64,000 bases of DNA, from contig CAYJSI010000001.1 of the NCBI GenBank assembly GCA_964373045.1, positions 31,650-95,649 of the forward strand, in the 5' to 3' direction. Each line of letters starts with the position of its first letter. Position 1 is the first letter of the stretch. The position numbers and the translations under genes were made by a program. The notes below the pieces were generated by a model. The model was not told the origin of the DNA, did not search any database, and worked only from the letters and a program-made list of their open reading frames with translations. This DNA comes from an uncultured bacterium. Lineage in GTDB: Bacteria > Omnitrophota > Omnitrophia > Omnitrophales > Aquincolibacteriaceae. Positions 1-15,731 of the stretch are shown here, one piece after another.

Positions 1-278
1 ATCGTATTGCAACCCTTCTTACTTTTCAGGGCATTCGTGATTCCCAATGCGGTTTTAAGGGTTTTACCCGCAAGGCCGGAAGGGAGCTTTTTCAGCGTCA
101 GAGATTAAACGGATTCTCATTCGATGCCGAGATTCTTTTTCTCGCTCAAAGACTGGGATACCGTATCCTGGAACTCCCCGTAACGTGGAGGAACTCACCT
201 CAAAGCCGTGTCAACCTTCTTCGGGATCCGGCAGCTATGTTCCTGGATCTTTTACGGATACGCATGATTCATCACTGA
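1..278 (+). CDS. GT2-family glycosyltransferase, C-terminal fragment; the gene begins upstream of the window
   Basis: In-frame translation ends ...FDAEILFLAQRLGYRILELPVTWRNSPQSRV...RMIHH* with a stop near 276-278. This matches the conserved C-terminus of DPM1-like GT2 enzymes. Confidence 0.45.
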   Translation, partial: RIATLLTFQGIRDSQCGFKGFTRKAGRELFQRQRLNGFSFDAEILFLAQRLGYRILELPVTWRNSPQSRVNLLRDPAAMFLDLLRIRMIHH

Positions 279-279
279 T

Positions 280-1992
280 GTGAATAATTCAAATCGATTA
301 GTTCAATACCTCCTTCCCCTTACCCTGATTCTTGGATTTGGCCTCAGGATGACAAGCATTCAATTTGGCTTGCCGCATCTTTATCATGCCGATGAGCCCA
401 TCGTGGTGAACCATGCCCTTGCTTACGGAACGGGAGATCTTAATCCTCATTACTTCAAATTTCCTCCTCTCATCACCTATCTTTTGTTTATGGTGTACGG
501 CTTCTATTACATTATTTCACTCCTGCTCGGCCGCGTCTCAAGTGTTGCTGATTTCCAAAACCTATTTCTCTCGGATCCTTCCTCCTTTTATCTGATCGCC
601 CGCATCATCTTCGGGGCGGGGCTGGGCACCCTCGGAATCGCAGTTTTCTATCGCCTGCTGCGCCGTTTTTTCAGTAACTCCCTTGCCCTTACGGCAAGTT
701 TTTTTCTTGCAACCAATTTTATGCATGTGCGAAATTCGCACTATTTTTATCTCGATATTCCTTTAATGCTTGTAATGATCTTGAGTTATTTTCCCATTTT
801 GAATGTCCTCACCCAAAAAAGGGCGCGGGATTATTATCTCTTTGGCGTTTGCTTAGGGTTAGCTGTCGGCACTAAATACAACGGATTTTTTATCGTCATT
901 CCTTTTTTATACGCCCATTTTGCCGCACAAGGGTGGAATTGGCGGGGGTATGTGCAATGGAAATTAATGGCCGCAGTAATTTTATCTCTTTTGACATTTG
1001 TTGCGGTAAACCCCTACGCCCTTTTGGATTACCCCGCATTTCTCCGCGACATCCTGAGCCTGCATGAATTTGAAGGGTATTTGGGCTGGACGCATCATTT
1101 TGTCTATTCTCTTCGACACGCCCTGGGCCTCCCGATGCTCAGCTTGGCGATGGTGGGGCTGATTCTTAATCTCTTCAAACCCGAAAAAAAGAAACTGGCA
1201 TTTATATTTTTTGCGGTTCCTTACTATGTCCTTTTGTGCCACTTTAGCGAACAGCACGCCCGTTATATTTTGCCGCTTCTTCCTTCGATGATGTTTTTTG
1301 CCGCCGACGCGCTCGACCGCCTCGGCCGCGTCTTACCGAAATTTGCGAAACTGGTGTCCCTTGCGGGAATTCTTGTCGTAACCCTTCCCTCGCTTTCCAG
1401 GATTTATCATTTAGACCGTATCCTGCAAAGTGAAGACATTCGCACAACCGCGCTGGGATGGATTAAAGAAAATATTCCGCAGGGTTCACGGATCGCACTT
1501 GACTCGTCCTTCTTTATGCCGCGTTTAAAGCCGACCTTGGCTCAGCTTCAAGATAAAGCGCAAGAGGCACATCTGAAGAATCAGCCGGCCAATATCAAGC
1601 GCATGCAATGGATGATCGATGACGCTAAAGCCCATCGGAGGCCGCGCTATGAACTTTATTTTCTGAATAAGAATCCGGATAGCGAGTTTTTGTTTGCAAA
1701 ACCCGTTTTGCCCTACGACGTGGGGGTGCTTAAGGATGCCGGAATCGAATACGTACTCGCGGTCCGATTAAGCCCTGATCACTTGCGGGATTTTTACGAG
1801 GCCCTTGACCGTGGGGGAGAAAAGATCCGGCGTTTCACTCCCTATTTTGATTCCCATCGGGACTGGCCCCTTTCAACACGACCGCTCACGGGTGCGCCGC
1901 TTACTTGGGAGGAGTTGGTTTCCCGCAGGCAAAATGGTCAGATTATCGATCTTTATAAGTTATCGCCCGCCCAGCCCGCTGACCCCGCTTAA
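280..1992 (+). CDS. Multipass membrane glycosyltransferase, GT-C fold (GT39/ArnT/PMT-like)
   Basis: 570-aa ORF with a GTG start 2 nt after the upstream stop. It has many hydrophobic helices and an N-terminal loop with a YHADEP acidic motif (typical of GT-C), followed by a C-terminal soluble domain. It is immediately followed by a GT2 polyprenyl-P-sugar synthase. Confidence 0.5.
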   Translation: MNNSNRLVQYLLPLTLILGFGLRMTSIQFGLPHLYHADEPIVVNHALAYGTGDLNPHYFKFPPLITYLLFMVYGFYYIISLLLGRVSSVADFQNLFLSDPSSFYLIARIIFGAGLGTLGIAVFYRLLRRFFSNSLALTASFFLATNFMHVRNSHYFYLDIPLMLVMILSYFPILNVLTQKRARDYYLFGVCLGLAVGTKYNGFFIVIPFLYAHFAAQGWNWRGYVQWKLMAAVILSLLTFVAVNPYALLDYPAFLRDILSLHEFEGYLGWTHHFVYSLRHALGLPMLSLAMVGLILNLFKPEKKKLAFIFFAVPYYVLLCHFSEQHARYILPLLPSMMFFAADALDRLGRVLPKFAKLVSLAGILVVTLPSLSRIYHLDRILQSEDIRTTALGWIKENIPQGSRIALDSSFFMPRLKPTLAQLQDKAQEAHLKNQPANIKRMQWMIDDAKAHRRPRYELYFLNKNPDSEFLFAKPVLPYDVGVLKDAGIEYVLAVRLSPDHLRDFYEALDRGGEKIRRFTPYFDSHRDWPLSTRPLTGAPLTWEELVSRRQNGQIIDLYKLSPAQPADPA

Positions 1993-2056
1993 GCCAAAGT
2001 GGATGGGCTCATCATTCTGTGATAATATTCCCATTCGTTAAAAAAACAAAGGCTCT

Positions 2057-3013
2057 GTGGGTGCCATGAATCGAGAATTGACTATTAGCGTTGTCGCGCC
2101 GGTTTATAACGAGGCTGAGACACTAGAGGAGTTCTATCGCCAGGTTGTTCGGGTCCTGGAGGGGTACGACTATGAAATCATCTTCGTCAATGACGGAAGC
2201 GTTGATAATTCTTGGGAAGTCCTTCGCAAGATTTCGGAAAAGGACAACCGAGTTCGCTCGCTTCGGTTTTCCCGCAATTTCGGGCACCAGGCTGCGATTT
2301 CGGCCGGGCTTGACCACGCCAAAGGCGATGCGGTGATTATTATGGATTCAGACTTGCAGGACCCGCCCGAGCTCATCCCCGCTATGATCGCCAAATGGAG
2401 GGAAGGTTACGATGTGGTGTATGGGACACGCTCAGAGCGCCAAGGGGAGGGACTTTTTAAAAAATGGACTGCGACATTTTTTTACCGGCTTTTTCGTCAA
2501 ACCACGAATATCGACGCCCCGCTTGAAGCCGGTGATTTCAGGCTTCTATCCCGTCCTGTGGTGGAGGCGATTCGCCAGCTTCCCGAACGTGTACGATTTC
2601 TACGCGGCTTGGTCAGCTGGGCGGGTTTTCAGCAGGTCGGTATCCCTTACTCCAGAAAAAAAAGGTTTGCAGGGACCTCTAAATATCCGCTCTGGAGAAT
2701 GCTGCGCTTCGCCTTTGACGGGATTACCTCCTTCAGCAGTGTGCCGCTTCAGTTTGCAAGCTTCCTCGGACTCGTGGTCACTATGATCGCTTTTCTCGTC
2801 GGGCTTTATTCTCTTTATATCCGCCTGTGCACCCCTACGGCGGTTCAGGGCTGGACATCAATTTTAATCGTGATTATTTTTCTCGGCGGCATTCAATTAG
2901 TGATGATTGGCGTCATCGGAGAATACATTGGGCGCATTTACGAAGAGGTCAAACGGCGCCCACTCTATCTCGTCCAGGAAAAGATCGGATTTGAAGCAAA
3001 AAAGTTGATTTAG
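2057..3013 (+). CDS. GT2 polyprenyl-phosphate sugar synthase (ArnC/GtrB/DPM1-like) with C-terminal TM anchors
   Basis: ISVVAPVYNEAETLEEF...DGSVDNS...NFGHQAAISAGLDHAKGDAVIIMDSDLQDPPELIP are canonical GT2 DxD-type motifs, with two C-terminal hydrophobic helices. An AAGG Shine-Dalgarno sits 4 nt before the GTG. Confidence 0.7.
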   Translation: MGAMNRELTISVVAPVYNEAETLEEFYRQVVRVLEGYDYEIIFVNDGSVDNSWEVLRKISEKDNRVRSLRFSRNFGHQAAISAGLDHAKGDAVIIMDSDLQDPPELIPAMIAKWREGYDVVYGTRSERQGEGLFKKWTATFFYRLFRQTTNIDAPLEAGDFRLLSRPVVEAIRQLPERVRFLRGLVSWAGFQQVGIPYSRKKRFAGTSKYPLWRMLRFAFDGITSFSSVPLQFASFLGLVVTMIAFLVGLYSLYIRLCTPTAVQGWTSILIVIIFLGGIQLVMIGVIGEYIGRIYEEVKRRPLYLVQEKIGFEAKKLI

Positions 3014-3014
3014 C

Positions 3015-4811
3015 GTGATTAAGTCCGATCGTTCCCTCCAAGTCTTTTTCATCCTCTCACTTTTTTTTGCCCTCACCCAAGGGGCCTTCTTCGCCGGTTG
3101 GGAACTGATGAAGGCCTGCGGCGATCTGATCCAATTCCTCTCCCTGTTCTTCCTTGGAGCGGTGGGTTTTCTTGCCTACGGGCGCTACAAGCGTGATCCA
3201 ACCTCTTTTTTCTCGCTGGAGCCCATACACTCCCTGTCCTCCATCCTTGCCCGGGAATCTATCCTTCCCATTCTTCTTTTGTTTGGTATCTATTATTTAA
3301 CCCAACTTGTGAATCAAATCACCATGCACTTGGCGCTCGAAACAGCTCTCTGGGATCTTGCATTTTATGATCAGGTCATCTGGAACACCGCCCATGCTGA
3401 CTTTATGATCACCTCCGTTCGCGGGGGCCTGCACATCTTTGCCGAGCACTTTAAACCCATCCTTGCCCTGCTGGCCCCGTTTTACTGGATCAAGGATCAT
3501 GTCTATCTTTTGTTTGCCTTCACGACTTTTATTACCTCAAGCACCTTGATTGCGGTCTATCTCATTAGCGGACAGGTTCTTCGCTCGCACACGACGTCCC
3601 TCGTTCTTGTTCTTTGCGTTTTCTTCTACTCGCCCCTTCGAAACGGCATCAGCTTTCTTTATCACACGCAAACCCTTGCCGACCCGTTTCTCTTGTTTGG
3701 CTTATTTTTCATCGTGACCTCGCGGACGGTCCTCGGACTTTTTTTCTTCACGATGGCGTTACTTTGCAAAGAGAACATTACAATGGACGTCTTGGGGATC
3801 GGCTTGTTTTTAACCGCTCGGGGAGAAAAGAAGGGGTTGGCCGTGACGGCCCTTGCCTTGAGCTTTCTTGCGTTCATTTTGTTTTATATCGAGCCGCGTT
3901 TTCATTTCCCTTATCACTTTGTCAATAAATGGAATTTTTACGCGCATTTTTTTGCCCCGACCTGGGAGCGGTGGCTTAAACTACTTGAGCCCAATCCGCT
4001 TACGTTCCTATTTTTAATCTTTGCTCCCTTTCTTTTTTTAACGTTCCGTTGCAAGGGTTGGGTGTGGCTGCTCGGGCCCTCGCTCGCTATTCGGCTCCTC
4101 AGTGCCTGGCCCGGATTCAGGGAGATTATTTATCACTATACGGCCGGATTGAACGCCCTGATTTTTATATCGGTCATCTACGGCTTGGCCGACATCAAAC
4201 AAGCGCATTCTCAGGATGAAAAGACGCTGCCCCTTTTTCTTCAGGCTAAATTTTTAAACGTCCTTTTGCTTTTAAGCGCGCTTGTGTTTGCTGGGAGATC
4301 CCAGCTTTTTAAAATAGACAAATATTTATGGTGGGCTTCAGCGCCCGAGATTCAGCGTTCGGTTCGAATCCTAGAAACAATCCCCAGCCATTTTTCGGTT
4401 CTTACTTCCGAGCGCTTTTCACCGCACGTTTCTCACCGTTCTCATCTTTACGTTTTCTTTAACATGTTTCCTCATACCCCTTATGAAAAGGCGGCAGAAT
4501 ACCCCGATCTGGTGATTGCCGATGAGGGGACGGCCCATGATCGGGACCGTAAGGCAATGCAGGATTTTGAGGAAAAAGGATACCGGCTCATTTTTGAGAC
4601 GATGCCTTTGAAAATCTACGAGCGCCCTTCCAAAGAGGCCCTCATCCCGCAATCCTTAAAAGAGCAGTGGACTGAGACGGTTCGCGCCCCCGTGATTGAT
4701 TATAGGGGACTTGTGACTTTCACTTATCGCGTCAGCGCGGGACTTGCGGGGATGGCGCTCCTTTGCCTGATCGCCGTGAGGAGGAATCTGCCGGAGGCGA
4801 AGGTAGGTTAG
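3015..4811 (+). CDS. Large integral membrane protein, DUF2079-like (putative GT-C-type glycosyltransferase)
   Basis: 598 aa and highly hydrophobic, with motif ALWDLAFYDQVIWNTAH reminiscent of DUF2079. The GTG start is directly after the upstream stop. Its stop overlaps the stop of the convergent gene. Confidence 0.4.
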   Translation: MIKSDRSLQVFFILSLFFALTQGAFFAGWELMKACGDLIQFLSLFFLGAVGFLAYGRYKRDPTSFFSLEPIHSLSSILARESILPILLLFGIYYLTQLVNQITMHLALETALWDLAFYDQVIWNTAHADFMITSVRGGLHIFAEHFKPILALLAPFYWIKDHVYLLFAFTTFITSSTLIAVYLISGQVLRSHTTSLVLVLCVFFYSPLRNGISFLYHTQTLADPFLLFGLFFIVTSRTVLGLFFFTMALLCKENITMDVLGIGLFLTARGEKKGLAVTALALSFLAFILFYIEPRFHFPYHFVNKWNFYAHFFAPTWERWLKLLEPNPLTFLFLIFAPFLFLTFRCKGWVWLLGPSLAIRLLSAWPGFREIIYHYTAGLNALIFISVIYGLADIKQAHSQDEKTLPLFLQAKFLNVLLLLSALVFAGRSQLFKIDKYLWWASAPEIQRSVRILETIPSHFSVLTSERFSPHVSHRSHLYVFFNMFPHTPYEKAAEYPDLVIADEGTAHDRDRKAMQDFEEKGYRLIFETMPLKIYERPSKEALIPQSLKEQWTETVRAPVIDYRGLVTFTYRVSAGLAGMALLCLIAVRRNLPEAKVG

Positions 4812-5686
4812 CGGCTTTTGCCTTTGATGAATTGATGAATCCGGTCAAGCGCACCTAAAAGACCGCTCGCGAACCGATCGTTAAAATTAAGCCGGCGTTT
4901 CAAGGCATCGTAAGTTCGTAAGACCATTTTATCCAGATAAATCCAAACGCCGCGCATGCCTTCTCCCGGCCGGGCGCGATATTCTGTGGAGTGGATGAAG
5001 GGATTTTTTTCCTCCGTAAAATAATAGAGCGCGATGGATTTTCGAGTCACCCCTTCTGGGCACTGAAGGGGTTCCGGGTGACCGTGAAAGGAGTTGGAGC
5101 GCGTATTAAAAATGACCGCGCGGTTAAAAAGGGGTGCGACGCGATGAGCGCAATGCCTCATTTTCCGGTCCCAGAGTTCTAAGTGGCCTCCGTAAGCCTC
5201 CTGCCAATTTTCGTTGAGATAAACCAGAACGTTTATGCGCCGCCGCCAGTTGCGGCGCTGGGGATGCACCGTGAAGTCGGCATGAATATTTAAACGTCCC
5301 CCGGGGCCCGTTTGATGCAGTCCGCCTCCTTCCAGCGAATCATCCGCAAGCAGATTTTTAATTCCCGAAAGCTGCGACAAAAAATCAATAAATCGGGGTG
5401 AATTTAGCTCTTGAACGATGGCCCGAAGCATCGGAGGAAAGGAATCGAGATCCGTTTTCCCAAATTTTCTTTCATTGAAATGCACATAACGAATCCATTC
5501 GCCAGAATTTAAGGGAGGGAATTCCCCAAGGCCGGCTTTGAGTATTTCCGGATCGAGAAAGTTGTCGAGGACGATGTGAGGATAGGGTTGGGCAAAGCGG
5601 TATTGATTGCGTAAACGGTCTATTTGGGGAAGCCATTTCGATTGGGGGGCTATGGATCCCGTCTTCGCTGCTTCAGAGCGAATCAT
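4808..5686 (-). CDS. 2OG-Fe(II) oxygenase superfamily protein (prolyl-4-hydroxylase-like)
   Basis: NIHADFTVHPQRRNWRRRINVLVYLNENWQEAYGGHLELWD resembles the His/Asp...His iron-binding region of the jelly-roll 2OG-oxygenase fold. Its ATG overlaps the stop of the upstream TylF-like gene (TAATG). Confidence 0.5.
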   Translation of the reverse strand: MIRSEAAKTGSIAPQSKWLPQIDRLRNQYRFAQPYPHIVLDNFLDPEILKAGLGEFPPLNSGEWIRYVHFNERKFGKTDLDSFPPMLRAIVQELNSPRFIDFLSQLSGIKNLLADDSLEGGGLHQTGPGGRLNIHADFTVHPQRRNWRRRINVLVYLNENWQEAYGGHLELWDRKMRHCAHRVAPLFNRAVIFNTRSNSFHGHPEPLQCPEGVTRKSIALYYFTEEKNPFIHSTEYRARPGEGMRGVWIYLDKMVLRTYDALKRRLNFNDRFASGLLGALDRIHQFIKGKSR

Positions 5687-6633
5687 TATCTTTGCCTCGC
5701 CTTGGCAGCAGAGGAAACAGGGTCCTCTTTGCCTTCGAACATCTTGCCCGGAGTTGTAAGCCTCGCTGCCGCACCGAGCCCTAATTTAAGTCCGCCCACC
5801 TGCGGAAAACTCTTGAAAGCAACCTTTGAGGGGTTTTTGAGCGTAAACCCCAATGAGCTCGTAAAATAGGAGTCCGTTAGGATTTTCAGTCCCACACCCG
5901 TACCCGCGCCCACAAGACCCGGAGGTTCTGTTTGCAGGTTTTCCCTCCACCATGCCTCAGAATAAAACAGAGCCGCTATTTCCCTGTGCTGAGATTCATG
6001 CGTATACAAGTAACAACCGTCCCTTAGAAGCGGCCAAAGATATTTTAAGCATGTTTCCAAGGAAGAGCGATAATCCACATCCAGCCACACCTGAACGCAT
6101 TTTTCGCGATAAGAAGGCAACGTTTGATCAAAAAAACCCTTATGAAATCGGCACACATCAGCGTTTCCATAACGCCGGACGTTTTCTTTGACCTCCTCGA
6201 ATGTCCCGCACCACCAGCCCTTTTGATAGGTGTGAATTTCCTTGGAGCCGATAAGGGTGTGGGCCTTATCCTGATCACTGGGCTCCGGCAAGCCTTCAAA
6301 GGAATCAAAAACATCGAGCCGGCGGCGGACAAGGGCGCAGACCAGCGACATATTGGCGGCACTGACTCCCTTATAAGCCCCGCACTCCACAACAACCCCT
6401 TCGAGCGAAGGGGGAAGTCTCAAGAGAGTGGCGGCCATGAGGAGGTGCTCAATGAAGCTTGACCCGGAGACAATGCGGCTGTTATTCCAGGCCATGCGAA
6501 GCACCAGAGCCAATTTCTTCCAGAAGCCGACACCATAGGCCTCCCCCGTTTCACGAGCAAAAAATCCGCTCAGAAACACGGGGATGCACAGCAGCTGCAG
6601 GATGATTCGGTAAAGCTTGCCCAGGAGTTTCAT
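5686..6633 (-). CDS. TylF/MycF-family SAM-dependent O-methyltransferase (macrocin-O-MT-like) with an N-terminal hydrophobic segment
   Basis: VVECGAYKGVSAANMSL...VFDSFEGLPEP...VWLDVDYRSSLETCLKYLWPLLRDGCYLYTHE matches TylF-family signatures. Confidence 0.55.
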   Translation of the reverse strand: MKLLGKLYRIILQLLCIPVFLSGFFARETGEAYGVGFWKKLALVLRMAWNNSRIVSGSSFIEHLLMAATLLRLPPSLEGVVVECGAYKGVSAANMSLVCALVRRRLDVFDSFEGLPEPSDQDKAHTLIGSKEIHTYQKGWWCGTFEEVKENVRRYGNADVCRFHKGFFDQTLPSYREKCVQVWLDVDYRSSLETCLKYLWPLLRDGCYLYTHESQHREIAALFYSEAWWRENLQTEPPGLVGAGTGVGLKILTDSYFTSSLGFTLKNPSKVAFKSFPQVGGLKLGLGAAARLTTPGKMFEGKEDPVSSAAKARQR

Positions 6634-6667
6634 ATTAAGGATTGCCTTGATGCAGTAAGTTCAATGA

Positions 6668-6696
6668 TAGACAGGGCTTAGCAAAGCCGATATAAT
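6668..6696 (+). promoter_or_regulatory. Sigma70-like promoter TAGACA-17 nt-TATAAT in the divergent intergenic region
   Basis: Seen in the 138-nt gap between the minus-strand TylF-like gene and the plus-strand GT2 gene at 6772. The -35 matches 5/6 and the -10 matches 6/6. Confidence 0.3.
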
Positions 6697-6771: not shown

Positions 6772-7542
6772 ATGATCCTCGGAAAAAAAATAGTTGTCAC
6801 TATGCCCGCCTACAATGCCGAACGGACTTTAGAGCGGACCTACCGCGAAATTCCGCGCGATGTGGTGGATTTGGTCATCTTAGTGGATGACTTAAGCCAA
6901 GACCGCACCGTTCAGCTGGCGCGCGATCTTAAAGTGGACGTCGTGATCACCCATAAAAAAAATAGGGGCTACGGCGCGAATCAGAAGACCTGTTACCAAG
7001 AAGCCCTTAGGCAGGGTGCTGACATTGTCATCATGCTTCACCCCGACTATCAGTATACCCCCGCCCTGATTGAGCCTTTGGCGTGGCTTGTGGCTCATGA
7101 CACCTACGATGTGGCCATTGCGTCAAGATTGCTTGGCAATAGCACCCTAAGCGGGGGAATGCCCGTTTATAAATATGTCTCCAATCGGGTGTTGACCTTA
7201 CTCGAAAACATTATCCTTTGGCAGCACGTCTCCGAGTACCACACGGGTTACCGTGCCTTTTCGAGAAGGGTTTTGGAAACCATCCCTTTTTTAAATAATT
7301 CCGACGGCTTCGTTTTTGATAACGAGATTTTAGCCCAGATATTCTATGCGGGATTCCGTGTCGGCGAAATCTCCTGCCCGACCAAATATTTTGACGATGC
7401 CTCGAGCATCAGCTTTCGTAACAGCTTAAAATACGGCTGGGGCTGCGTGAAAACCATGCTGAAATATCGGCTTCAATGCTGGCGCCTTATCGATCACAAA
7501 ATCTTTGCAGGGTTTAAACGGGGCCGGCCCACTCCTCATTGA
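6772..7542 (+). CDS. GT2 glycosyltransferase (polyprenyl-P-sugar synthase, CsbB/DPM1-like)
   Basis: VVTMPAYNAERTLERT...VILVDDLSQDRTVQLA...IVIMLHPDYQYTP. GT2 motifs present. Confidence 0.65.
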   Translation: MILGKKIVVTMPAYNAERTLERTYREIPRDVVDLVILVDDLSQDRTVQLARDLKVDVVITHKKNRGYGANQKTCYQEALRQGADIVIMLHPDYQYTPALIEPLAWLVAHDTYDVAIASRLLGNSTLSGGMPVYKYVSNRVLTLLENIILWQHVSEYHTGYRAFSRRVLETIPFLNNSDGFVFDNEILAQIFYAGFRVGEISCPTKYFDDASSISFRNSLKYGWGCVKTMLKYRLQCWRLIDHKIFAGFKRGRPTPH

Positions 7543-9430: not shown

Positions 9431-9431
9431 T

Positions 9432-11807
9432 ATGAAGCGAGCCCATTCAACAGATCTTTCTTCAAAAAGGCAGGAGTGGCTGCCGCTCCTCGGGCTTGCC
9501 CTGTCACTTTTTATTTTTTATCCTGAACTTTTTTTTGCCAAGGCTGCTTCTTTAATGGGGGACCACATCGAACAGCACTATCCCTGGGCCCTTCTTCTTG
9601 CGGACTCACTTAGGCAGTTTCAGATCCCTTTCTGGACGCCTCTCATCCACTCTGGATTTCCCATCGCGGCGGAAAGTCAGATCGGGATTTTTTATCTTCC
9701 CAACCTCATTCTTTACTTTCTTTTTCCGTTTCATGTCGCTTACTCTTATATGAATCTCGTCCATTTTTACCTCGCAGGGGCCTCGACCTATCTTTACGCA
9801 CGCCTGATAAAGCTGGAGCGCCTCCCGGCTTTTACGGCCGCCTTTATTTTTCTTTTCGGCGCAGCCTATGGAGGGGCCTACTATAACATCACGTCCCTTA
9901 AAACCATTTGCTGGCTGCCTCTGGGTCTTTATCTTTTTGAAAAATATTACCAGGAGGGGCATAAAAAGTATCTCGTGGGCTTAAGTTTTTCTATGGCCAT
10001 GTCCATCGTTGCGGGCTACATGCAAGTCGCTGCCCTAACCTGGCTGATCTTTGCCGTTTATGTGTTTCTTCGATTAATTTTTTTTCCGCATGAAAAAGAT
10101 GCCGCTCAAACACCTCTAAGCCACGCTTTTGCTTTAATCCTCACGGCCGCAGGCGCTTCTCTCATCGCAGCCCCGCAGATCTATTTGACCTTTGAGCTGG
10201 CGATCCAGTCCAACCGGACAGGATTAGAGGAGGGCTACGCCTACGTGGGATCCCTCTCACCCTTTGCTTTGAGCACCTTGATCGATCCGGTCGCTCAAAG
10301 GATCTTCCGGGGAAGCAGCCTCTACGGCGGTCTTTTTTCACTCTTTCTTGTTCTGATTTCATTTTGTTCACGGGAGGTCAGAGGAGATAAATTTTTCCGG
10401 CTTTGGTCCGTCCTTGCCGTTTTTTGCTTATTCATGGCCTTGGGCCGTTGGAGTCCCCTGTATGTGGCTTTTGTCAAACTCACCCATTTTTATTCCTTTC
10501 GGATTCCTGCAAAGTTTTCGGTCTTTGTGTGTCTGGCCCTGGCTTTTTTATCAGGGATGGGGCTTCAAGGGGCGATGAAGGCTATGAAAAACGACGTTCA
10601 TGCCGTGAGACCTGTTTTATTAGCAGCAAAAGGTTACCTTGGTGTAGTCGTCATTTTTCTGTTAGCCGGCAGCGGTGTTTATTTTTTTGCCACTGCAGGG
10701 AAGGAATGGGCGCTCTTAATCGGAAAGTCGTATATCCAGCAATTTATTTATGGACACCCCGGCCACCCCCACTCCCTAGAAACATACCTGGAACGATTGT
10801 CCGGTTTTCCCGATAGCGTCTTGACCTTGTTTGCCCTTCATGAATGGGTCAATGGCTGGACATTGGGCATGATCTTAGGGAGTCTTGGGGGGGCTGTTTT
10901 TTTATTAAAAAGTCGGCGCCTTTCGAGGCGATGGATGATCAGCGGATTGATTTTTCTTGCCATCGATCTATACGGGTACGCTTGGTTTGACATCAAGCGT
11001 GACTTTGCCCGCTACGACGATGTTTTACGTCCTTCTGCGGTGGTCGAGGCTCTTAAAATGGAAAAGGCAAGAGGGGAGATGGGGCGTCTTTATGGGCGGA
11101 GAAATCCGGGAGAAGATTTAGCGCTTGTGCCAAGCATCAATATGCTCTATGGCCTCGAAGACATCGGGGCTTACTCTCCCTTTGTGACAAGGCGTTACCA
11201 TGAAACCGTCGGACGCTTTGGGAATGTAAATGACTCCAATTTTGCTTACCCATTGGACCCCCAATTTTTTAACGAACACGCGCCCCTCCTAAATGCCTTG
11301 GACGTGTCCCATATCCTTTCGAGTCAAGTGATCGATCACCCGGCTTGGACCTTGCTGATCGAGGATCAAAAAACGCCCGCCTATCTCTATAAAAATTCAG
11401 CTTCTCGATCACGGGCGCATTTTGTTCAGGCCTATCGCTCTTTTTCAAGTTGGGAAACCCTGCGTGAGGTGTTTCTCACGCCTCATTTTGACCCAAAAAA
11501 AGAATTGCTTCTGGAAGAGACAGAGCTTAAAAAATTACCGGTCGATTTTGTCAAAGATCTTCAACCAGAGAATGAATCCGCCGGGGTAGAGCTGATCAAT
11601 CGATCGGATGCAGGAGAGACCTGGGTCGTTCGTCATTCCCATGCCGGATTCTTGGTAGTGATGAATACGGCGTATCCGGGTTGGAGGGCAAACGCAAACG
11701 GCGCCGACCTCCCCTTGATCCAAGCCTACGGACTCTTTCAGGCCGTGTGGCTCAAAGAAGGCGGTCAAGACCGTGTCCACTTTTCTTACGCACCGTTTCG
11801 GGACTGA
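9432..11807 (+). CDS. YfhO-family membrane glycosyltransferase (GT-C)
   Basis: The ORF track begins at 9327 and overlaps the previous gene. An in-frame ATG at 9432, directly after the upstream TAA, is preferred. The protein is about 790 aa. Its N-terminus GDHIEQHYPWALLLADSLRQFQIPFWTPLIHSGFPIAAESQIGIFY is typical of YfhO, with many TMs and a C-terminal soluble domain. The GT2 + YfhO pairing is known from CsbB/YfhO-type LTA/WTA glycosylation. Confidence 0.5.
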   Translation: MKRAHSTDLSSKRQEWLPLLGLALSLFIFYPELFFAKAASLMGDHIEQHYPWALLLADSLRQFQIPFWTPLIHSGFPIAAESQIGIFYLPNLILYFLFPFHVAYSYMNLVHFYLAGASTYLYARLIKLERLPAFTAAFIFLFGAAYGGAYYNITSLKTICWLPLGLYLFEKYYQEGHKKYLVGLSFSMAMSIVAGYMQVAALTWLIFAVYVFLRLIFFPHEKDAAQTPLSHAFALILTAAGASLIAAPQIYLTFELAIQSNRTGLEEGYAYVGSLSPFALSTLIDPVAQRIFRGSSLYGGLFSLFLVLISFCSREVRGDKFFRLWSVLAVFCLFMALGRWSPLYVAFVKLTHFYSFRIPAKFSVFVCLALAFLSGMGLQGAMKAMKNDVHAVRPVLLAAKGYLGVVVIFLLAGSGVYFFATAGKEWALLIGKSYIQQFIYGHPGHPHSLETYLERLSGFPDSVLTLFALHEWVNGWTLGMILGSLGGAVFLLKSRRLSRRWMISGLIFLAIDLYGYAWFDIKRDFARYDDVLRPSAVVEALKMEKARGEMGRLYGRRNPGEDLALVPSINMLYGLEDIGAYSPFVTRRYHETVGRFGNVNDSNFAYPLDPQFFNEHAPLLNALDVSHILSSQVIDHPAWTLLIEDQKTPAYLYKNSASRSRAHFVQAYRSFSSWETLREVFLTPHFDPKKELLLEETELKKLPVDFVKDLQPENESAGVELINRSDAGETWVVRHSHAGFLVVMNTAYPGWRANANGADLPLIQAYGLFQAVWLKEGGQDRVHFSYAPFRD

Positions 11808-11813
11808 AAGAAA

Positions 11814-12728
11814 ATGACCATCCTTGCATCTAAAGACATTCGGTTGGCTTCACAAAAGCTTTGCCCTGCCTGCGGCGGAAGTAAGCGCACGAGGCTCTTC
11901 AAAATTACCGCCTCCGAAGTCTTTCGCTGTATGGAATGCGGACTCAAATACCTGGATCCCTGCCTCTCCGAGGGCTCCATGTCCGCCGCTTATGAATCCG
12001 GCGAATCCCTTAAATCCTTTCATGATTTTCATGAAGGTTACTATGACTACGGAGAACTCAGCCAAAAAAGCAAAACGCGGGATGATTTCCAGGAAGGACT
12101 GCTCCGTTTAGAAAAACACTTAAGTCCGGGACAGCCGAGGAAGATTTTGGATGTCGGGTACGGTAACGGATTCTTTCTTGCGGTTGCACGCCAAAGAGGC
12201 TGGCAAGTGGACGGTATTGATACAAGCGCAGAGAACCGAAAGATAGCCAAAGCAAGGTTCGGCCTGCAGCTTCGATCGGGCGGCTTTGAGCAGGACATTC
12301 CGAACGATCAAACTTATGGCGCCGTGGCCTTTTGGGACGTGATCGAGCATCTTGCCAATCCGCATCGCACGCTTCAAAAGGTGAGGCGCATTCTAAAACC
12401 CGGCGGGCTTGTCCTGATCGCTCTTCCTAATGATCAAAACTTACTAATGATCATTGCATCGTTCTTGTATAAAATCACGGCGGGCGTATTTAATTTTGGT
12501 CTCAAAAAATTATATTTCCTGGAACACGTTTGCTATTATGAACAAAAATCACTCAACGCATTGCTGGAAAAGAACCGATTTGTGAATCAGGATTATTTTT
12601 TCACAAACACCGATTTGGCAAAGTACCGGTTGCCGCGATGGGAGAAGATCGTGGCGGGGACCCTGCTTCAAATCGGCCATTGGCTGAGACTCGATAACAG
12701 ACTCGTCGTGATCTACCAAATTTTATGA
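11814..12728 (+). CDS. Class I SAM-dependent methyltransferase with an N-terminal Zn-ribbon
   Basis: CPACGG...CMECG zinc ribbon, then ILDVGYGNGFFL (motif I) and a Methyltransf_11/23-like core. Confidence 0.6.
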   Translation: MTILASKDIRLASQKLCPACGGSKRTRLFKITASEVFRCMECGLKYLDPCLSEGSMSAAYESGESLKSFHDFHEGYYDYGELSQKSKTRDDFQEGLLRLEKHLSPGQPRKILDVGYGNGFFLAVARQRGWQVDGIDTSAENRKIAKARFGLQLRSGGFEQDIPNDQTYGAVAFWDVIEHLANPHRTLQKVRRILKPGGLVLIALPNDQNLLMIIASFLYKITAGVFNFGLKKLYFLEHVCYYEQKSLNALLEKNRFVNQDYFFTNTDLAKYRLPRWEKIVAGTLLQIGHWLRLDNRLVVIYQIL

Positions 12729-13411
12729 TGCATTTAGCTAAAAAAGCATTCTATAAATTAATCGGACTAAATCCCTACCTTGACCGCTGGATTCGCTACC
12801 GAAATCCAAGAAAATATTGGTCCGAGAGGGGCGGTGACCGCTACTTCATTGAACAGGAATCAGTTCAGGCGAGGACGCTTCGCAGCGAATTTATTACAGA
12901 TCACCTTAGACAATACCCGGCACAAAGCATTCTGGAAGTCGGATCGGGCTACGGAAAGCAATTAAAAAACCTTGCTCGCGAGGGCCTGTTGCTCGCCGGA
13001 TGCGATTTCAGCCGGCCGCAGCTTCTGAAATCGCGCGACCATTGTCAGGGAATTGAGTTATGCCTTGCGGAAGCGGATGCGGAGCATATTCCCTTTGCCA
13101 GTCAGTCGATGGACTTGGTGTTTTCTTCCGCGGTCATCCTGCACAATCGCTATCCCAAGGCGCAGGGGATCATCGCCGAGATGATCCGAGTGAGCCGCAG
13201 GTGGATCGCTCACAATGAAGACACGGACGTTACGTTTTCGCGCTACGGCTATGACATGAAAAAGACCTACGAGAAACTCAATTTTAAAATTCACGAATCG
13301 ATCCAAATCCCTTGCGCCAATCAGCCCTCCATTACACAATTTACAGTGGTGGAACTTCCCAGCCCCGGCATTCAAATCGCCCCGAAGGATATCCCGCTTC
13401 AGTACCACTGA
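12725..13411 (+). CDS. Class I SAM-dependent methyltransferase
   Basis: ILEVGSGYGKQL motif I...MDLVFSSAVILHN. Overlaps the upstream gene by 4 nt (ATGA). Confidence 0.55.
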   Translation: MMHLAKKAFYKLIGLNPYLDRWIRYRNPRKYWSERGGDRYFIEQESVQARTLRSEFITDHLRQYPAQSILEVGSGYGKQLKNLAREGLLLAGCDFSRPQLLKSRDHCQGIELCLAEADAEHIPFASQSMDLVFSSAVILHNRYPKAQGIIAEMIRVSRRWIAHNEDTDVTFSRYGYDMKKTYEKLNFKIHESIQIPCANQPSITQFTVVELPSPGIQIAPKDIPLQYH

Positions 13412-13420
13412 GGCGCATCC

Positions 13421-14185
13421 ATGAAACCGATCATTGTCATCCCGACTTATAACGAGCGTGAAAACATTTCAGAGCTCGTGTCCTTGATCCACAAGGAAGC
13501 GGGAGAGTGGTCGCTAAGCATCCTCGTCGTCGACAGCGCTTCTCCGGATGGAACCGCAAAGGTCGTCCGCAAGCTGCAAGGGCAGTATCCCCATCTGTAT
13601 CTTTTGGAACAGACCGCAAAACGCGGGTTGGGGAATGCCTACCTCGAGGGGATGCGCTGGGCGCTGGAAAGAGATTTCGATTATTTGATTACTATGGATG
13701 CCGACTTCTCGCACCACCCCGGTCATCTGAACGACATGTTACAAAAAATTGAGCACTCGGACCTTGTGGTCGGATCTCGGTACATCGCGGGCGGGGAGCT
13801 TCGGAATTGGCCCAAAAGACGCCGCTTCCTCAGTCAATTTGCAAACTGGTATGCACGCACCTTGACGGGGCTTCCGTTTTCGGATTTAACCAGCGGATTC
13901 CACTGCTTTCGGACCCCTCTTCTTCGCAAAATTCTGCGTTATCGCATCCATGCGGAGGGCTATGCCTTTTTAATCGAGCTCAAATTCCTCGCCATCCTAC
14001 AAGGGGCCCGTTTCGGCGAAATTCCTATCATTTTTAATGATCGGACCAAAGGAGATTCCAAGATTTCAAAAAGGGTTATCCTTGAATCAATTTTAATTGT
14101 ACTGCTGCGCAGCCTCCATCGCGCCCGGATCTTACGGCTTGTGAAACAAGCCAAATCGCAGACCTCTCATGCCCAAGTTTCATAA
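13421..14185 (+). CDS. GT2 polyprenyl-phosphate glycosyltransferase (DPM1-like)
   Basis: IIVIPTYNERENISELV...VVDSASPDGTAKVV...YLITMDADFSHHP are canonical DPM1-family motifs. Confidence 0.7.
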   Translation: MKPIIVIPTYNERENISELVSLIHKEAGEWSLSILVVDSASPDGTAKVVRKLQGQYPHLYLLEQTAKRGLGNAYLEGMRWALERDFDYLITMDADFSHHPGHLNDMLQKIEHSDLVVGSRYIAGGELRNWPKRRRFLSQFANWYARTLTGLPFSDLTSGFHCFRTPLLRKILRYRIHAEGYAFLIELKFLAILQGARFGEIPIIFNDRTKGDSKISKRVILESILIVLLRSLHRARILRLVKQAKSQTSHAQVS

Positions 14186-15731
14186 AAAACAAGTCGCGCT
14201 TCTTGGATTCCTTGTTTTAGTGGTGCTGGGGATCCAGCTTTCAACCATTCAAAGACCCTTTGTCGGCCATTATGCAAGCTACCAGGGGACGGTTATGGCC
14301 GCCATGGCACGTAATATGGTTCGCGAAAATTTCAGGGAAATCCTTCTTCCCAAAACAGATGCCGTTATCGGAGGCGAGAGATCGCTCCATCTGAATCAAT
14401 ATCCTTTTCCATCACTTCTGGCGGCGCTCGGCGTTCGCTTCGTGGGGGGGAGCTATGAATTCTGGGGACGATTTCAAGCGGTTTGTTTCAATCTTTTCTC
14501 GCTCATCCTTCTTATATTGATTGCACGCAGACTTTTTGACCCCATGACCGCCCTTGTGGCGGGTTGCCTTTACGCTTGGTCGCCTTATACGCTCATTTAT
14601 GGTCAAAGTTTTATGTCGGAGGCGAGCTCGTTATGTTTTTTACTCCTTGCGCTTTGGTCGCTTCTTAAAAATTCTTCCTTTGTGGGTGTAACGCTCAGTG
14701 CACTATTTTTTTCAATCGCCGTCACGGGGCGCGTGCATTGGGCGCTTCTCTGGCCGGTTTTTGGCTTCAGTTTGTGGAGGGAGCCTCCGGGAATAAGATT
14801 TAAAAAGATGATCCTTTTTACGATCATTGCCTCGATCCTTCCCGTCGCGTGGTACGCCCACACTTATTTCGTCTCACTCGGGGCCACCAACCTTCATACC
14901 AACTTATTTCTCCAGGCATCGGCTCAAAAATCAGATCAATTTTGGTTGTTTTCAAACCCCATTTTTTTTATAAAAACCGTTCGCATTTTTTTTGGAATGA
15001 TGCTCACCCCGCTCCTCGCACCTTTTTTCTTTGCGGGCCTTATCCTGGGAGATCGAAAAAGTCATTCTTTTAAAGTGACGGCGATAGGAATCTTGGCGGC
15101 CGTCCTCGTTGCCTTTCTCGCTCCTTTAAAAGTCATAACGCATGATTTTTATCTTTACGCCGCCACTCCCTTTTTTATCATGATGGCTTCTGTGGGGCTT
15201 GCCCGGATCAGAGAGCGATTTCGGTTCTTGGCCAAATCTCTCTCTATCGGGATTTTTTTGGCGCTCTACGGAGTGGTTTCATTCCGTTTTTTTTCCCATC
15301 CCATTTTTGTTTACCCGGAAAATGAAATCCAGGCCGCGGAACGGGCTCAAATCGTAAAGAAAACATCCGAAAAAGGTGCTCTTGTTATCGCAGCAGGTGA
15401 GAATGCCCCCATCCTGGCTTATTATGTGGACCGTCCATCGTGGCAATTTCAACCCAGTCAAATCGGAGGGGCGCTGGAGGATTATCAGCGGGTTGAGGGA
15501 CTGAGCGGCAATGACCTGAACGAACTGCGAGAACTCGAAGCAGCGCAAAGGGATGGAATTAGCTGGGTCGAGTATCTAAAAGATCGTGGGGCGACCTACT
15601 TTTTCGCTCCCCACAAGGAAGAAATTGATCGGGTTCCGAATCTCTCAGAGCACCTTAGGAGTCATTACCAAAATCTGGCCAAGGATGAGGACGGCTATTA
15701 TTTTTATAGAATGGGTCCAACGCCAGCCTAA
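14169..15731 (+). CDS. Multipass membrane glycosyltransferase, GT-C fold (GT39/ArnT-like)
   Basis: 520 aa and hydrophobic, with a C-terminal soluble domain. It immediately follows the DPM1-like GT2. Confidence 0.45.
   Translation: MPKFHKKQVALLGFLVLVVLGIQLSTIQRPFVGHYASYQGTVMAAMARNMVRENFREILLPKTDAVIGGERSLHLNQYPFPSLLAALGVRFVGGSYEFWGRFQAVCFNLFSLILLILIARRLFDPMTALVAGCLYAWSPYTLIYGQSFMSEASSLCFLLLALWSLLKNSSFVGVTLSALFFSIAVTGRVHWALLWPVFGFSLWREPPGIRFKKMILFTIIASILPVAWYAHTYFVSLGATNLHTNLFLQASAQKSDQFWLFSNPIFFIKTVRIFFGMMLTPLLAPFFFAGLILGDRKSHSFKVTAIGILAAVLVAFLAPLKVITHDFYLYAATPFFIMMASVGLARIRERFRFLAKSLSIGIFLALYGVVSFRFFSHPIFVYPENEIQAAERAQIVKKTSEKGALVIAAGENAPILAYYVDRPSWQFQPSQIGGALEDYQRVEGLSGNDLNELRELEAAQRDGISWVEYLKDRGATYFFAPHKEEIDRVPNLSEHLRSHYQNLAKDEDGYYFYRMGPTPA

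Follow-up and report, generated by a model that had tools for sequence, protein, structure and literature searches.

Predicted iterated modules of GT2 glycosyltransferases and GT-C membrane transferases at a conserved locus of Candidatus Omnitrophota

About 27 kb of genomic DNA from a member of Candidatus Omnitrophota encode five GT2 enzymes, predicted to load sugars onto lipid carriers, and six large membrane proteins predicted to act as extracytoplasmic GT-C transferases. They were identified in the window, the whole stretch of 64,000 nucleotides that was analysed, where the module-rich region extends to about 26.7 kb rather than to 15.7 kb. An earlier, sequence-only reading had named ten ORF starts (280, 2057, 3015, 6772, 7580, 9432, 13421, 14169, 20529 and, on the minus strand, 24896); all of them match ORF boundaries, and the class given to each was correct according to Pfam or, for 9432 and 24896, to AF2 models and PDB matches. 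The ORFs are labelled below, the first coordinate being the one by which each is known:

3..278, plus strand: g00, soluble GT2, C-terminal 91 residues, cut by the left edge of the window (blastx)
280..1992, plus strand: g01, PMT/PMT_2-like GT-C, 570 aa (Pfam PMT and PMT_2, both E 6e-12)
2057..3013, plus strand: g02, GtrB/ArnC/PgfS-type polyprenyl-phosphate glycosyltransferase, 318 aa (Pfam Glycos_transf_2, E 2e-39)
3015..4811, plus strand: g03, DUF2079 membrane protein, 598 aa (Pfam DUF2079, E 3e-40)
6772..7542, plus strand: g06, soluble GT2, 256 aa (Pfam GT2, E 3e-18)
7580..9430, plus strand: g07, PMT/PMT_2-like GT-C, 616 aa (Pfam PMT 27.3 bits, PMT_2 26.9 bits)
9432..11807, plus strand: g08, distant YfhO-family GT-C, 791 aa (AF2 model, Foldseek and Pfam matches of orthologues)
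13421..14185, plus strand: g11, DPMS/DPM1-like soluble GT2, 254 aa (Pfam Glycos_transf_2, E 6e-27)
14169..15731, plus strand: g12, PMT_2-like GT-C, 520 aa (Pfam PMT_2, 29.1 bits against a cut-off of 26.1)
20529..21260, plus strand: g18, soluble GT2, 243 aa (Pfam GT2, E 3e-22)
24896..26641, minus strand: g23, GT-C-fold protein, 581 aa (confident AF2 model, PDB matches)

The earlier assignment of g02 as a polyprenyl-phosphate-sugar synthase was confirmed by a full-length match to the GtrB structure 5EKP (E 1e-93), and the protein conserves the equivalents of GtrB D94/D96, R122, R125, K132, D157 and R200, which are all of the functionally tested residues (PMC4728340). It also carries two C-terminal TM helices (residues 233-251 and 269-287). 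The DPM1-like character proposed for g11 is borne out by its similarity to the Dol-P-Man synthase 5MLZ (E 1e-30, residues 1-240) and by retention of the DAD, SRY and SGF motifs and the R200 equivalent. The truncated g00 contains an ALG5/DPM1-like motif (QCGFKGF...FSFDAE) and shares 55-66% identity (blastx) with the C-terminus of a GT2 of about 240 aa whose gene immediately precedes the g01 orthologue in at least 15 loci. Its full-length orthologues retain DAD, the R122 equivalent and xGF, and g00 is likely to be the donor synthase for g01.

The g06 and g18 proteins are more divergent and are missing one or two of the residues that have been called universal for GT2 enzymes acting on lipid phosphates. 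In g06, HPD occupies the DxD position and the R200 equivalent is missing; its top PDB match is the DPMS 5MLZ (E 3e-7), and its top NCBIfam matches, PpgS and Dol-P-hexose transferase, are both weak. Orthologues of g06 adjoin those of g08 or g07 in five loci, and the protein is probably a polyprenyl-phosphate sugar synthase serving g07 and/or g08. In g18, PGD stands in the DxD position, the R122 equivalent fails to align, and the full-length matches to GtrB (E 4e-6) and DPMS (E 1e-5) are weak, so that its role as a lipid-phosphate glycosyltransferase is uncertain. Given the missing residues and the weak similarity to DPMS and GtrB, both proteins may instead be Leloir GT2 enzymes of the ordinary kind.

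Each of the six large proteins is polytopic and contains 7-12 hydrophobic segments. Three of them, g01, g07 and g12, are mutually homologous, with hhalign probabilities of 98.6-99.3% (g01-g07 99.3%, g01-g12 99.0%). The Pfam score of g01 (46 bits) exceeds the gathering score, and those of g07 narrowly exceed the cut-offs; g01 has an extramembrane domain of about 200 aa at its C-terminus, and g07 an additional N-terminal extension of about 100 aa plus four TM helices. The DUF2079 protein g03 is connected to these proteins by hhalign probabilities of 92-96% overall (96.4%, E 1e-9, to the g01 family and 95.3% to g12), and we infer that it is a GT-C enzyme as well.

For g08, whose ATG at 9432 lies within an ORF opening with TTG at 9327, the proposed YfhO likeness was supported: 11 of 40 orthologues match PF09586 (YfhO, best E 6e-14), whereas the window's own protein has no Pfam match and does not reach the YfhO model. 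The protein has a beta-rich C-terminal domain at about residues 540-791; its AF2 model has a pLDDT of 89, and the best 28 Foldseek matches in the PDB are all GT-C enzymes (AftD, STT3, AftA, PglB and others). The g23 protein has no match among Pfam or NCBIfam models, and its named homologues are all from Omnitrophota; the top PDB matches of its AF2 model are exclusively GT-C enzymes, including ArnT (5F15).

An acidic-loop motif had been predicted for the large membrane proteins, and a conserved Asp directly after a TM helix in the N-terminal region is present in five of the six (g01, g03, g07, g08 and g23). In g01 it forms part of a HADEP motif (D38-E39) following TM1, in g03 it is D114, invariant in 71 sequences, with K252/E253 also conserved, in g07 it is D131 (conserved in 97%), and in g08 the invariant D44 lies in a GDHxEQHYPW motif. 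The exception is g12, where a conserved His takes the canonical loop-1 Asp position (H34 aligns to g07 D131); E97 and E151 are conserved in this protein.

Genes for predicted sugar-tailoring enzymes and SAM methyltransferases are interleaved with these modules:

4808..5686, minus strand: 2OG-Fe(II) oxygenase, tailoring enzyme (Pfam 2OG-FeII_Oxy_3, E 3e-19)
5686..6633, minus strand: TylF-like O-methyltransferase (Pfam TylF, E 7e-14)
11814..12728, plus strand: g09, SAM methyltransferase (Pfam Methyltransf_23, E 2e-23)
12725..13411, plus strand: g10, SAM methyltransferase (Pfam Methyltransf_11)
15769..16566, minus strand: g13, SAM methyltransferase (Pfam Methyltransf_23/11)
16602..20522, plus strand: g14-g17, NDP-sugar epimerase/dehydratase, SIS-domain isomerase, second epimerase and DAO-type FAD oxidoreductase (Pfam)

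The 2OG oxygenase gene also adjoins g05/g06 orthologues in loci L018 and L031. A conserved block member, g09 has orthologues of g07/g08 on one side and of g11/g12 on the other in at least ten loci; its N-terminal match to Zn_ribbon_IS1595 is weak (E 9e-4, 19.6 bits, under the cut-off of 25.4). Orthologues of g10 (54-67% identical) take the same position in L011, L012, L019 and L020.

Gene order was compared across 25 loci that are 15 kb or longer and belong to other Omnitrophota species, centred on the g08 (YfhO-like) orthologue. Within 10 kb of the YfhO-like gene, every locus has one or more GT2 genes and two or more GT-C genes, and in 20 of the 25 a GT2/GT-C pair is adjacent and co-oriented; the arrangement is therefore no chance co-occurrence. 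The recurring blocks are GT2-g01, g06-g08/g07, and g09-g10-g11-g12 with its two methyltransferases. In the ORF list, start/stop coupling is seen for g02/g03 (a gap of 2 nt from stop to start), g07/g08 (1 nt) and g11/g12 (a 17-nt overlap). The sequence-only reading had combined the GT2 at 2057 with the GT-C at 280 and the DUF2079-like protein at 3015. However, the conserved partner of 280 is the truncated GT2 at 3-278, and 2057 is translationally coupled to the DUF2079 gene at 3015, so the likely donor/transferase pairs are g00 with g01, g02 with g03, g06 with g07 and g08, and g11 with g12. A fourth pair suggested for 20529 and 24896 found no support in synteny; g23 orthologues directly follow the g11/g12 block in other genomes, and g11 is possibly the donor for g23 also.

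The core of the sequence-only reading, iterated GT2 synthases and extracytoplasmic GT-C enzymes with methyltransferases among them, is thus supported by the families and folds computed for the proteins, by conserved residues of catalytic type, by translational coupling and by a gene neighbourhood conserved across the phylum. Taken as a whole, bases 1-26.7 kb probably encode an iterated multi-component transmembrane glycosylation system, in which the sugars, the flippase, the final acceptor and the topology are inferred, as is the use of a lipid-phosphate acceptor by g06 and g18. At the cytoplasmic face, each of five candidate GT-A-fold GT2s, g00, g02 (GtrB-type, carrying two TM helices) and the soluble, DPM1-sized g06, g11 and g18, would load undecaprenyl (polyprenyl) phosphate with one sugar taken from a nucleotide sugar. 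Tailoring of the nucleotide or lipid-linked sugars probably falls to the neighbouring epimerases/dehydratases, SAM methyltransferases, the 2OG oxygenase and a B12-radical-SAM enzyme, so that the donors would differ among themselves and some would be methylated. A flippase would then carry the lipid-linked monosaccharides over the inner membrane, and in the periplasm g01, g07 and g12 (PMT_2-like), g03 (DUF2079), g08 (YfhO-like) and g23 would place the sugars on the acceptor. There are precedents for GT-A enzymes that are soluble, for flippases of the Wzx type and for several GT-A/GT-C pairs per organism (PMC8035078), and likewise for GT-Cs with carbohydrate-binding modules and for the tailoring of lipid-linked sugars (PMC11127046).

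No GtrA/SMR-type flippase occurs in the window, nor does any of the inspected neighbourhoods contain one. The window's sole flippase candidate is the following, and the function may also reside in a gene outside the window:

52580..54073, plus strand: Wzx/MOP-type flippase (Pfam Polysacc_synt_3, E 6e-22, about 10 TM segments)

This gene lies in the 27-64 kb part together with a large nucleotide-sugar (nonulosonic acid) pathway, which is consistent with a mixed pathway, a reading that we regard as possible. There, only g00, g02 and g11 would make lipid-phosphate sugars, g06 and g18 would be ordinary cytoplasmic Leloir GT2s extending an Und-PP-linked repeat unit, for which the Wzx at 52.6 kb would be the exporter, and the GT-Cs would add only a few periplasmic side-chain decorations, similar to Gtr-type O-antigen modification. 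The altered DxD and R200 or R122 positions of g06 and g18 and their weak matches to DPMS and GtrB fit this view, as does a Wzy_C gene beside DUF2079 genes in locus L078. However, the window ORFs of at least 150 aa include no initiating phosphoglycosyltransferase, Wzy or WaaL, and g06 orthologues lie repeatedly immediately upstream of g08 or g07. It would also leave three donors for six GT-Cs, although one donor can serve two (PMC8035078).

Somewhat more doubtful is protein O-glycosylation, in which the PMT-like GT-Cs would use lipid-phosphate sugars to modify Ser/Thr residues of proteins that are secreted or displayed at the surface (pilins, S-layer or the giant surface proteins characteristic of Omnitrophota), as in actinobacterial Ppm1/Pmt or Streptococcus mutans PgfS/PgfM1/PgfM2. 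The PMT matches span just the middle of the model (positions 83-229 of 245), searches for PMT_4TMC and MIR domains detected none, and the NCBIfam PgfS match of g02 falls far short of its cut-off (301 bits, with 500 required). Structural similarity does not tell the acceptors apart, as ArnT, Aft, ALG and STT3 score alike, and PMT_2 also includes ArnT and the polysaccharide-modifying GacL, GtlB and CsdD (PMC8035078).

ArnT/EptA-style modification of lipid A phosphates or LPS core with charged or neutral sugars appears improbable. The g02 protein matches ArnC structures (E 6e-56) and ArnT is among the best structural matches of g23, but g02 is much nearer to GtrB, no ArnA, ArnB, ArnD or ArnE/F equivalents flank it, and six transferases far exceed the number in known lipid A modification systems. 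PMT_2 is the family to which ArnT belongs. That the large proteins are transporters or other non-glycosyltransferases incidentally clustered with GT2s, a reading for which the missing Pfam matches of g08 and g23 speak, was rejected as extremely improbable, because all six classify as GT-C by Pfam, hhalign or Foldseek, transporters rank below the GT-C block in Foldseek (probabilities ≤0.3, TM-scores about 0.1), profile-profile links connect g01, g03, g07 and g12, and the neighbourhood is conserved in all 25 loci.

For the iterated transmembrane system, the presence of six GT-Cs, one with a large beta-rich C-terminal domain, favours a glycan that is assembled or decorated step by step in the periplasm over a single protein O-glycosylation step, and the acceptor is most likely a surface polysaccharide or lipoglycan. 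The locus would represent a dense form, conserved across the phylum Omnitrophota, of a glycosylation scheme that other bacteria are already known to use.

The ORF map reproduced all gene positions of a sequence-only reading, which had described repeated GT2 and GT-C glycosyltransferase modules in the first part of the window, and the family classes given there were confirmed. The genes of these modules (numbered within g00-g23) and two B12-radical-SAM loci are the following:

280-1992, forward strand: g01, GT-C protein of 570 aa
2057-3013, forward strand: g02, GT2 protein of 318 aa
3015-4811, forward strand: g03, DUF2079 protein of 598 aa
6772-7542, forward strand: g06, GT2 protein of 256 aa
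7580-9430, forward strand: g07, GT-C protein of 616 aa
9432-11807, forward strand: g08, GT-C protein of 791 aa, with its ATG one base past the g07 stop and within a longer TTG ORF
13421-14185, forward strand: g11, GT2 protein of 254 aa
14169-15731, forward strand: g12, GT-C protein of 520 aa
20529-21260, forward strand: g18, GT2 protein of 243 aa
21375-24882: B12-binding radical SAM enzyme (PhpK/HpnR-like methyltransferase class, weak matches), then three membrane ORFs of ~170 aa
24896-26641 (ORF 24896-26659), reverse strand: g23, GT-C protein of 581 aa, with the start placed at Met7 as in its homologues
60214-61911: second B12-radical-SAM gene

Four proteins (g02, g06, g11 and g18) matched Pfam Glycos_transf_2, and three exceeded the gathering score of PMT/PMT_2 (g01, 46 bits; g07, 27 bits; g12, 29 bits). 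The protein g03 belongs to DUF2079 (PF09852, E 3e-40), and g08 and g23 had no Pfam match. Each of the six GT-C proteins contains 7-12 hydrophobic segments, g02 has two at its C-terminus, and the other GT2 proteins have none. Interspersed among these genes, Pfam identified a 2OG-Fe(II) oxygenase, a TylF-like O-methyltransferase, three more SAM methyltransferases, two NDP-sugar epimerase/dehydratases, a SIS isomerase, a DAO-type flavoenzyme and the first B12-radical-SAM enzyme. No tRNA marking an island boundary was found.

GtrB-type PI-GTs combine a GT-A domain with two juxtamembrane helices and two C-terminal transmembrane (TM) helices; the GtrB residues R122 and R200 are reported to be universal among lipid-phosphate glycosyltransferases, and D157 is the putative catalytic acid (PMC4728340). 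The protein g02 aligned over its full length to the GtrB crystal structure 5EKP (E 1e-93) and to ArnC (E 6e-56), retains equivalents of GtrB D94/D96, R122, R125, K132, D157 and R200, and has TM helices at 233-251 and 269-287. It is predicted to be a PI-GT of the GtrB/ArnC/CsbB type. Residues 1-240 of g11 align to residues 23-256, the catalytic region, of the Pyrococcus Dol-P-Man synthase (DPMS) structure 5MLZ (E 1e-30), with the DAD and SRY motifs and the R200 equivalent kept, which bears out the earlier call of a DPM1-like GT2 at 13421 and points to a DPMS-like enzyme. This protein has no TM domain, and a search for a small membrane partner identified none.

The truncated gene g00 (bases 3-275, frame 3, stop codon 276-278) encodes the last 91 residues of a GT2 protein and is 55-66% identical to a ~240-aa GT2 whose gene directly precedes the g01 orthologue in 15 or more related loci. 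Its full-length orthologues contain the DAD motif, the R122 equivalent and a QCGFK motif, with Ser at the R200 equivalent. The two remaining GT2 proteins, g06 and g18, are divergent, and their best solved relatives (DPMS, or DPMS and GtrB) are weak matches (E 1e-5 to 3e-7); g06 lacks the R200 equivalent, and in g18 the R122 equivalent is unaligned and the first Asp of the DxD motif is missing. The complete GT2 genes (g02, g06, g11 and g18) share only 21-30% mutual identity; they are old paralogues, not recent duplicates.

Pfam, hhalign or fold comparison supports the GT-C class for all six large membrane proteins. In hhalign, g01 matched g07 at 99.3% and g12 at 99.0% probability; a phmmer search of g01 against PDB sequences gave no match. 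In g01 and g07, the PMT profile was matched over positions 83-229 of 245 only, and no PMT_4TMC or MIR domain was found by Pfam, for which reason these proteins were filed as PMT_2/ArnT-like and not as GT39. A DE motif occurs in g01 (D38-E39 of HADEP, in a loop after a TM helix near the N-terminus), and GT39 PMT membership is defined by this motif together with a C-terminal PMT_4TMC domain (in eukaryotes also MIR domains), a combination that neither g01 nor g07 carries. Thus, g01, g07 and g12 are best described as putative PMT_2/ArnT-like GT-Cs with GT39 membership not demonstrable. The N-terminus of g07 carries an extension of ~100 residues and four TM helices (window 7580-7900) without counterpart in g01 and g12, with a weak match to the Leptospira LIC_10190 family model (35 bits; cut-off 100).

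GT-C enzymes of such systems are expected to carry a conserved acidic motif, a modified DxD, in their first extracytoplasmic loop. A conserved Asp follows a TM helix of the N-terminal region in five of the six GT-C proteins, including g07 (D131, 97% conserved). The exception is g12, where His34 aligns to D131 of g07 and the acidic positions conserved instead are E97 and E151. This His34, within GHYASYQ, is conserved in the PMT_2-like family of g12, whose members may have a variant catalytic arrangement or be non-catalytic. The DUF2079 protein g03 has an invariant D114 (71 sequences) and was connected by hhalign to the families of g01 (96.4%, E 1e-9), g12 (95.3%) and g07 (92.5%), from which we infer that DUF2079 is a GT-C family; no mention of DUF2079 was found in the literature searched. 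Positive-inside counts (K+R) based on crude hydropathy were contradictory between the GT-C proteins and do not fix the membrane side of the acidic loops.

For g08, an AF2 model built from a 40-sequence alignment (pLDDT 89, pTM 0.90) has a beta-rich domain at residues ~540-791, and its best 28 Foldseek PDB matches were all GT-C proteins (AftD, STT3, AftA, PglB, AglB, Emb, PMT and DPY19). Asp44 of this protein is invariant within a GDHxEQHYPW motif. The description of g08 as YfhO-like stands as a distant subfamily with a GT-C fold, since PF09586 was matched by 11 of 40 orthologues (~45% identity, best E 6e-14) and not by the window protein itself even at E<=5. The protein g23 has invariant D41 and D45 in a GLPxDFNxDH motif. 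Probabilities stayed below 10% when g08 and g23 were compared by hhalign with PMT_2-like families and with each other, and the g08 family profile had no match among PDB sequences. The link of both proteins to the GT-Cs comes from fold comparison only, and by fold g23 probably represents a GT-C family that has no Pfam or NCBIfam model. In Foldseek, transporters fell far below the block of GT-C matches with negligible scores, in agreement with the original assignment of the large membrane proteins as transferases.

Look-ups of the exact g07 and g08 sequences matched no recorded contig. Homologues of g08 and g23 come almost exclusively from metagenome-assembled genomes (MAGs) of Candidatus Omnitrophota. 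A scan of GTDB species representatives yielded 69 loci, most of them in this phylum, with Planctomycetia relatives at 26-28% identity. The window proteins were mapped onto the related loci, and conservation was counted in the 25 Omnitrophota loci that span 15 kb or more. In all 25, one or more GT2 genes and two or more GT-C genes lie no further than 10 kb from the g08 orthologue (median three of each), and 20 of them contain an adjacent, co-oriented GT2/GT-C pair. Three blocks recur: epimerase-GT2-g01; g06-g08 or g06-g07-g08; and g07-g09-g10-g11-g12, in which g09 and g10 are methyltransferases and the order of g11 and g12 is inverted in some loci. Gene lists of four loci (L001, L003-L005) revealed similar islands with B12-radical-SAM and nonulosonic-acid genes nearby. 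In two Planctomycetia MAGs (L044 and L051), a g01-like GT-C gene precedes a distant g08 relative (26-28% identity) with GT2 genes upstream, and in a third (L060) the g08 relative is followed, after ~8 kb, by a g01-like gene; the module layout may therefore predate Omnitrophota.

The likely donor/transferase pairs, based on synteny and on gene spacing in the window, are g00 with g01, g02 with g03, g06 with g07 and then g08, and g11 with g12. The genes g02 and g03 are separated by 2 nt and g11 and g12 overlap by 17 nt, and the 1-nt gap between g07 and g08 suggests that one donor may serve two transferases. Two of the pairings initially proposed were revised. The GT2 gene at 2057 had been grouped with the transferases at both 280 and 3015, which spacing and synteny assign to g00 and g02, respectively. 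The tentative pair of the genes at 20529 and 24896 (g18 and g23) was rejected as unsupported: in loci L011 and L015, the g23 orthologues are convergent and directly follow the g11/g12 block, from which g23 is separated in the window by the g13-g22 cassette. Possibly, g23 is also served by g11, and g18 has no conserved GT-C partner. A strict pairing of GtrB with DUF2079 was likewise rejected as a general rule. DUF2079 orthologues occur in similar islands with varying neighbours, and elsewhere in Omnitrophota they adjoin soluble GT2, methyltransferase, B12-radical-SAM, PMT_2 or Wzy_C genes.

Neither the ORFs of the window nor the neighbour lists of related loci contained a GtrA-family match, and a Wzx-like gene at 52580-54073, 26 kb from the modules, is the sole flippase candidate in the window. 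The three small membrane ORFs at 23328-24882 had no GtrA-, GacJ- or DPM2/3-like match (Pfam, E<=5), no other Pfam or NCBIfam match, and no tblastn match across 74 related loci (L001-L074), and were for these reasons left out of the system.

The best-supported model for these genes is the known multi-component scheme of transmembrane glycosylation, for which the direct support in this analysis comes from homology, fold, conserved residues and conserved neighbourhood. Cytoplasmic GT-A enzymes would synthesize undecaprenyl phosphate (Und-P) monosaccharides, a flippase (the Wzx-like protein being the candidate) would export them, and GT-C enzymes would move the sugars onto an acceptor outside the cytoplasm, as described for other bacteria (PMC8035078, PMC11127046). 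Precedents exist for soluble GT-A enzymes (GacI), Wzx- or MATE-type flippases, several pairs per organism (Lactococcus CsdAB/CD/EF), one donor for two GT-Cs (Listeria GttA), tailoring of lipid-linked sugars, and carbohydrate-binding domains on GT-Cs (PMC8035078, PMC11127046). The lipid acceptor of g06 and g18, the sugars and their methylation, the flippase, the topology and the final acceptor are putative elements of this model. For the acceptor, we lean towards a polysaccharide or lipoglycan, given the many GT-Cs and the large, beta-rich C-terminal domain of g08, a protein whose best structural match (AftD) also has carbohydrate-binding domains outside the cytoplasm; protein O-glycosylation is a less likely alternative.

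Similar logic is found in GtrA/GtrB/GtrC of Shigella and Salmonella, CsbB/GtcA/YfhO and GtlA/GtlB of Bacillus, Listeria and Staphylococcus, CsdAB/CD/EF of Lactococcus and GacI/J/K/L of Streptococcus pyogenes (PMC8035078, PMC5836110). In these systems, a GT2 enzyme of the GT-A fold produces an Und-P-monosaccharide that a GT-C (YfhO, PMT_2 or unclassified) transfers outside the cytoplasm, several pairs can occur per organism, and a Wzx-type flippase can stand in for GtrA. The membrane-anchored g02 resembles CsbB, and the soluble g06, g11, g18 and g00 resemble GacI. In contrast to these pairs, which are for the most part scattered, single side-chain modifiers, five GT2 and six GT-C genes lie here within 27 kb in a block conserved across a diderm candidate phylum, with SAM methyltransferases conserved inside the block and without a detected GtrA-type flippase or GacJ-like partner. 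The g02 protein is also homologous to ArnC of lipid A modification and to PgfS of the Streptococcus mutans protein glycosylation system (PgfS/PgfM1/PgfE/PgfM2), both of which use PMT_2-type GT-Cs. However, it scores below the equivalog cut-offs of both (PgfS, 301 versus 500 bits; ArnC, 203 versus 529 bits), and the accessory genes of the Arn and Pgf systems are absent here.

In mycobacteria, the aftA-embCAB genes are clustered. The Omnitrophota block shares with mycobacterial arabinogalactan and LM/LAM assembly (Ppm1, DPPR synthase, DprE1/E2, AftA-D, EmbA-C, PimE and MptA-C; PMC3485146, PMC12041299) its many clustered GT-C genes and, in the proposed model, the use of polyprenyl-phosphate monosaccharides tailored before use and the stepwise building of a polymer outside the cytoplasm. 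AftD, the best Foldseek match of g08, has large extracytoplasmic carbohydrate-binding domains. However, the relation is at the fold level only (~9-12% identity in Foldseek), DPPR synthase and DprE-type genes are absent here, the donors come from GT2 enzymes, and the host is a diderm unrelated to Actinobacteria. The three-component GT136 pentofuranose system of Citrobacter youngae O antigens would parallel this block in four features: its sugar donor is linked to a lipid phosphate, its flippase candidate is of the MOP/MATE type, its GT-C bears a carbohydrate-binding domain at the C-terminus, and an auxiliary epimerase diversifies the donor. However, its donor synthase is a PRPP-dependent PPPRS rather than a GT2, and it comprises a single module as opposed to several here (PMC11127046). 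No paper describing Omnitrophota modules of this kind was found in the literature searched. The logic is well known; new here are the density of the genes, their conservation throughout a phylum, the methyltransferases inside the block, and two GT-C families that have hardly been charted.

A more far-reaching reading, improbable in our judgement, is that the block forms a complete periplasmic assembly line producing a methylated heteroglycan or lipoglycan wholly from polyprenyl-phosphate monosaccharides, instead of a set of side-chain decorators. The block would then be the diderm counterpart of mycobacterial LM/LAM/arabinogalactan synthesis. It would be conserved throughout Omnitrophota, with a part shared by Planctomycetia, and would use at least one GT-C family without Pfam or NCBIfam model (g23) as well as the His-variant g12. 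If this were true, such a glycan could be a component that defines the envelope of these ultra-small, host-associated bacteria.

From 27 to 64 kb, the window continues as a single uninterrupted island of glycan biosynthesis, with genes for methyltransferases, KASIII, GNAT acetyltransferases, DegT-type aminotransferases, a PseB-like dehydratase, WbuX/HisH/HisF-type amidotransfer proteins, NeuB, a CMP-sugar synthetase, an acyl-CoA-ligase/aminotransferase fusion, the Wzx-like flippase, an HldE-like enzyme, a TPP-dependent E1 pair and the second B12-radical-SAM enzyme. A nonulosonic-acid-type pathway at 33512-50616 includes NeuB, a CMP-sugar cytidylyltransferase, the PseB-like dehydratase, WbuX (337 bits, above the cut-off) and HisH/HisF-like amidotransfer genes; also encoded there are GNATs, a methyltransferase and a protein whose C-terminal domain is that of a formyltransferase. 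The GC content is 0.42-0.46 over 33-54 kb, with flanks at 0.48-0.52, suggesting that the nonulosonic-acid cassette was separately acquired or is variable.

Directly after NeuB, a 932-aa fusion of an acyl-CoA/AMP-binding ligase and a class I/II PLP aminotransferase (45651-48449), unusual in a sugar cluster, may acylate or aminoacylate the nonulosonic acid. A 585-aa soluble protein without Pfam match, encoded directly upstream of the Wzx-like gene (50863-52620), had weak NCBIfam matches to TIGR04396 ('surface carbohydrate biosynthesis protein', 45 bits) and the BFO_1060 family of glycosyltransferases (41 bits), and is a candidate nonulosonic acid transferase. The HldE-like bifunctional heptose enzyme (54227-55798) has a reversed domain order (N-terminal adenylyltransferase, C-terminal PfkB kinase), and this gene and the SIS (GmhA-like) gene at 17497-18234 hint at heptose-derived sugars. 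The E1 alpha/beta pair (55801-57857; TPP-dependent dehydrogenase/transketolase-like), located amid sugar aminotransferases, may form a branched-chain or two-carbon-extended sugar. At 26739-30124, genes for a methyltransferase, a KASIII-type ketosynthase and a GNAT-domain protein come after a 100-aa ORF without family match, a gene set which suggests that an acyl substituent is made for the glycan.

Since the mechanism is textbook, the value of these findings lies mainly in annotation and hypotheses. The locus provides a functional context for DUF2079 and adds a GT-C family without model (g23) and a distant YfhO subfamily (g08). The bacteria of the phylum Omnitrophota are uncultivated, in many cases ultra-small, and seem to depend on a host; their cell surface is, to our knowledge, essentially uncharacterised. 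For these organisms, the block predicts that a major glycan or glycoprotein of the envelope is produced largely outside the cytoplasm.
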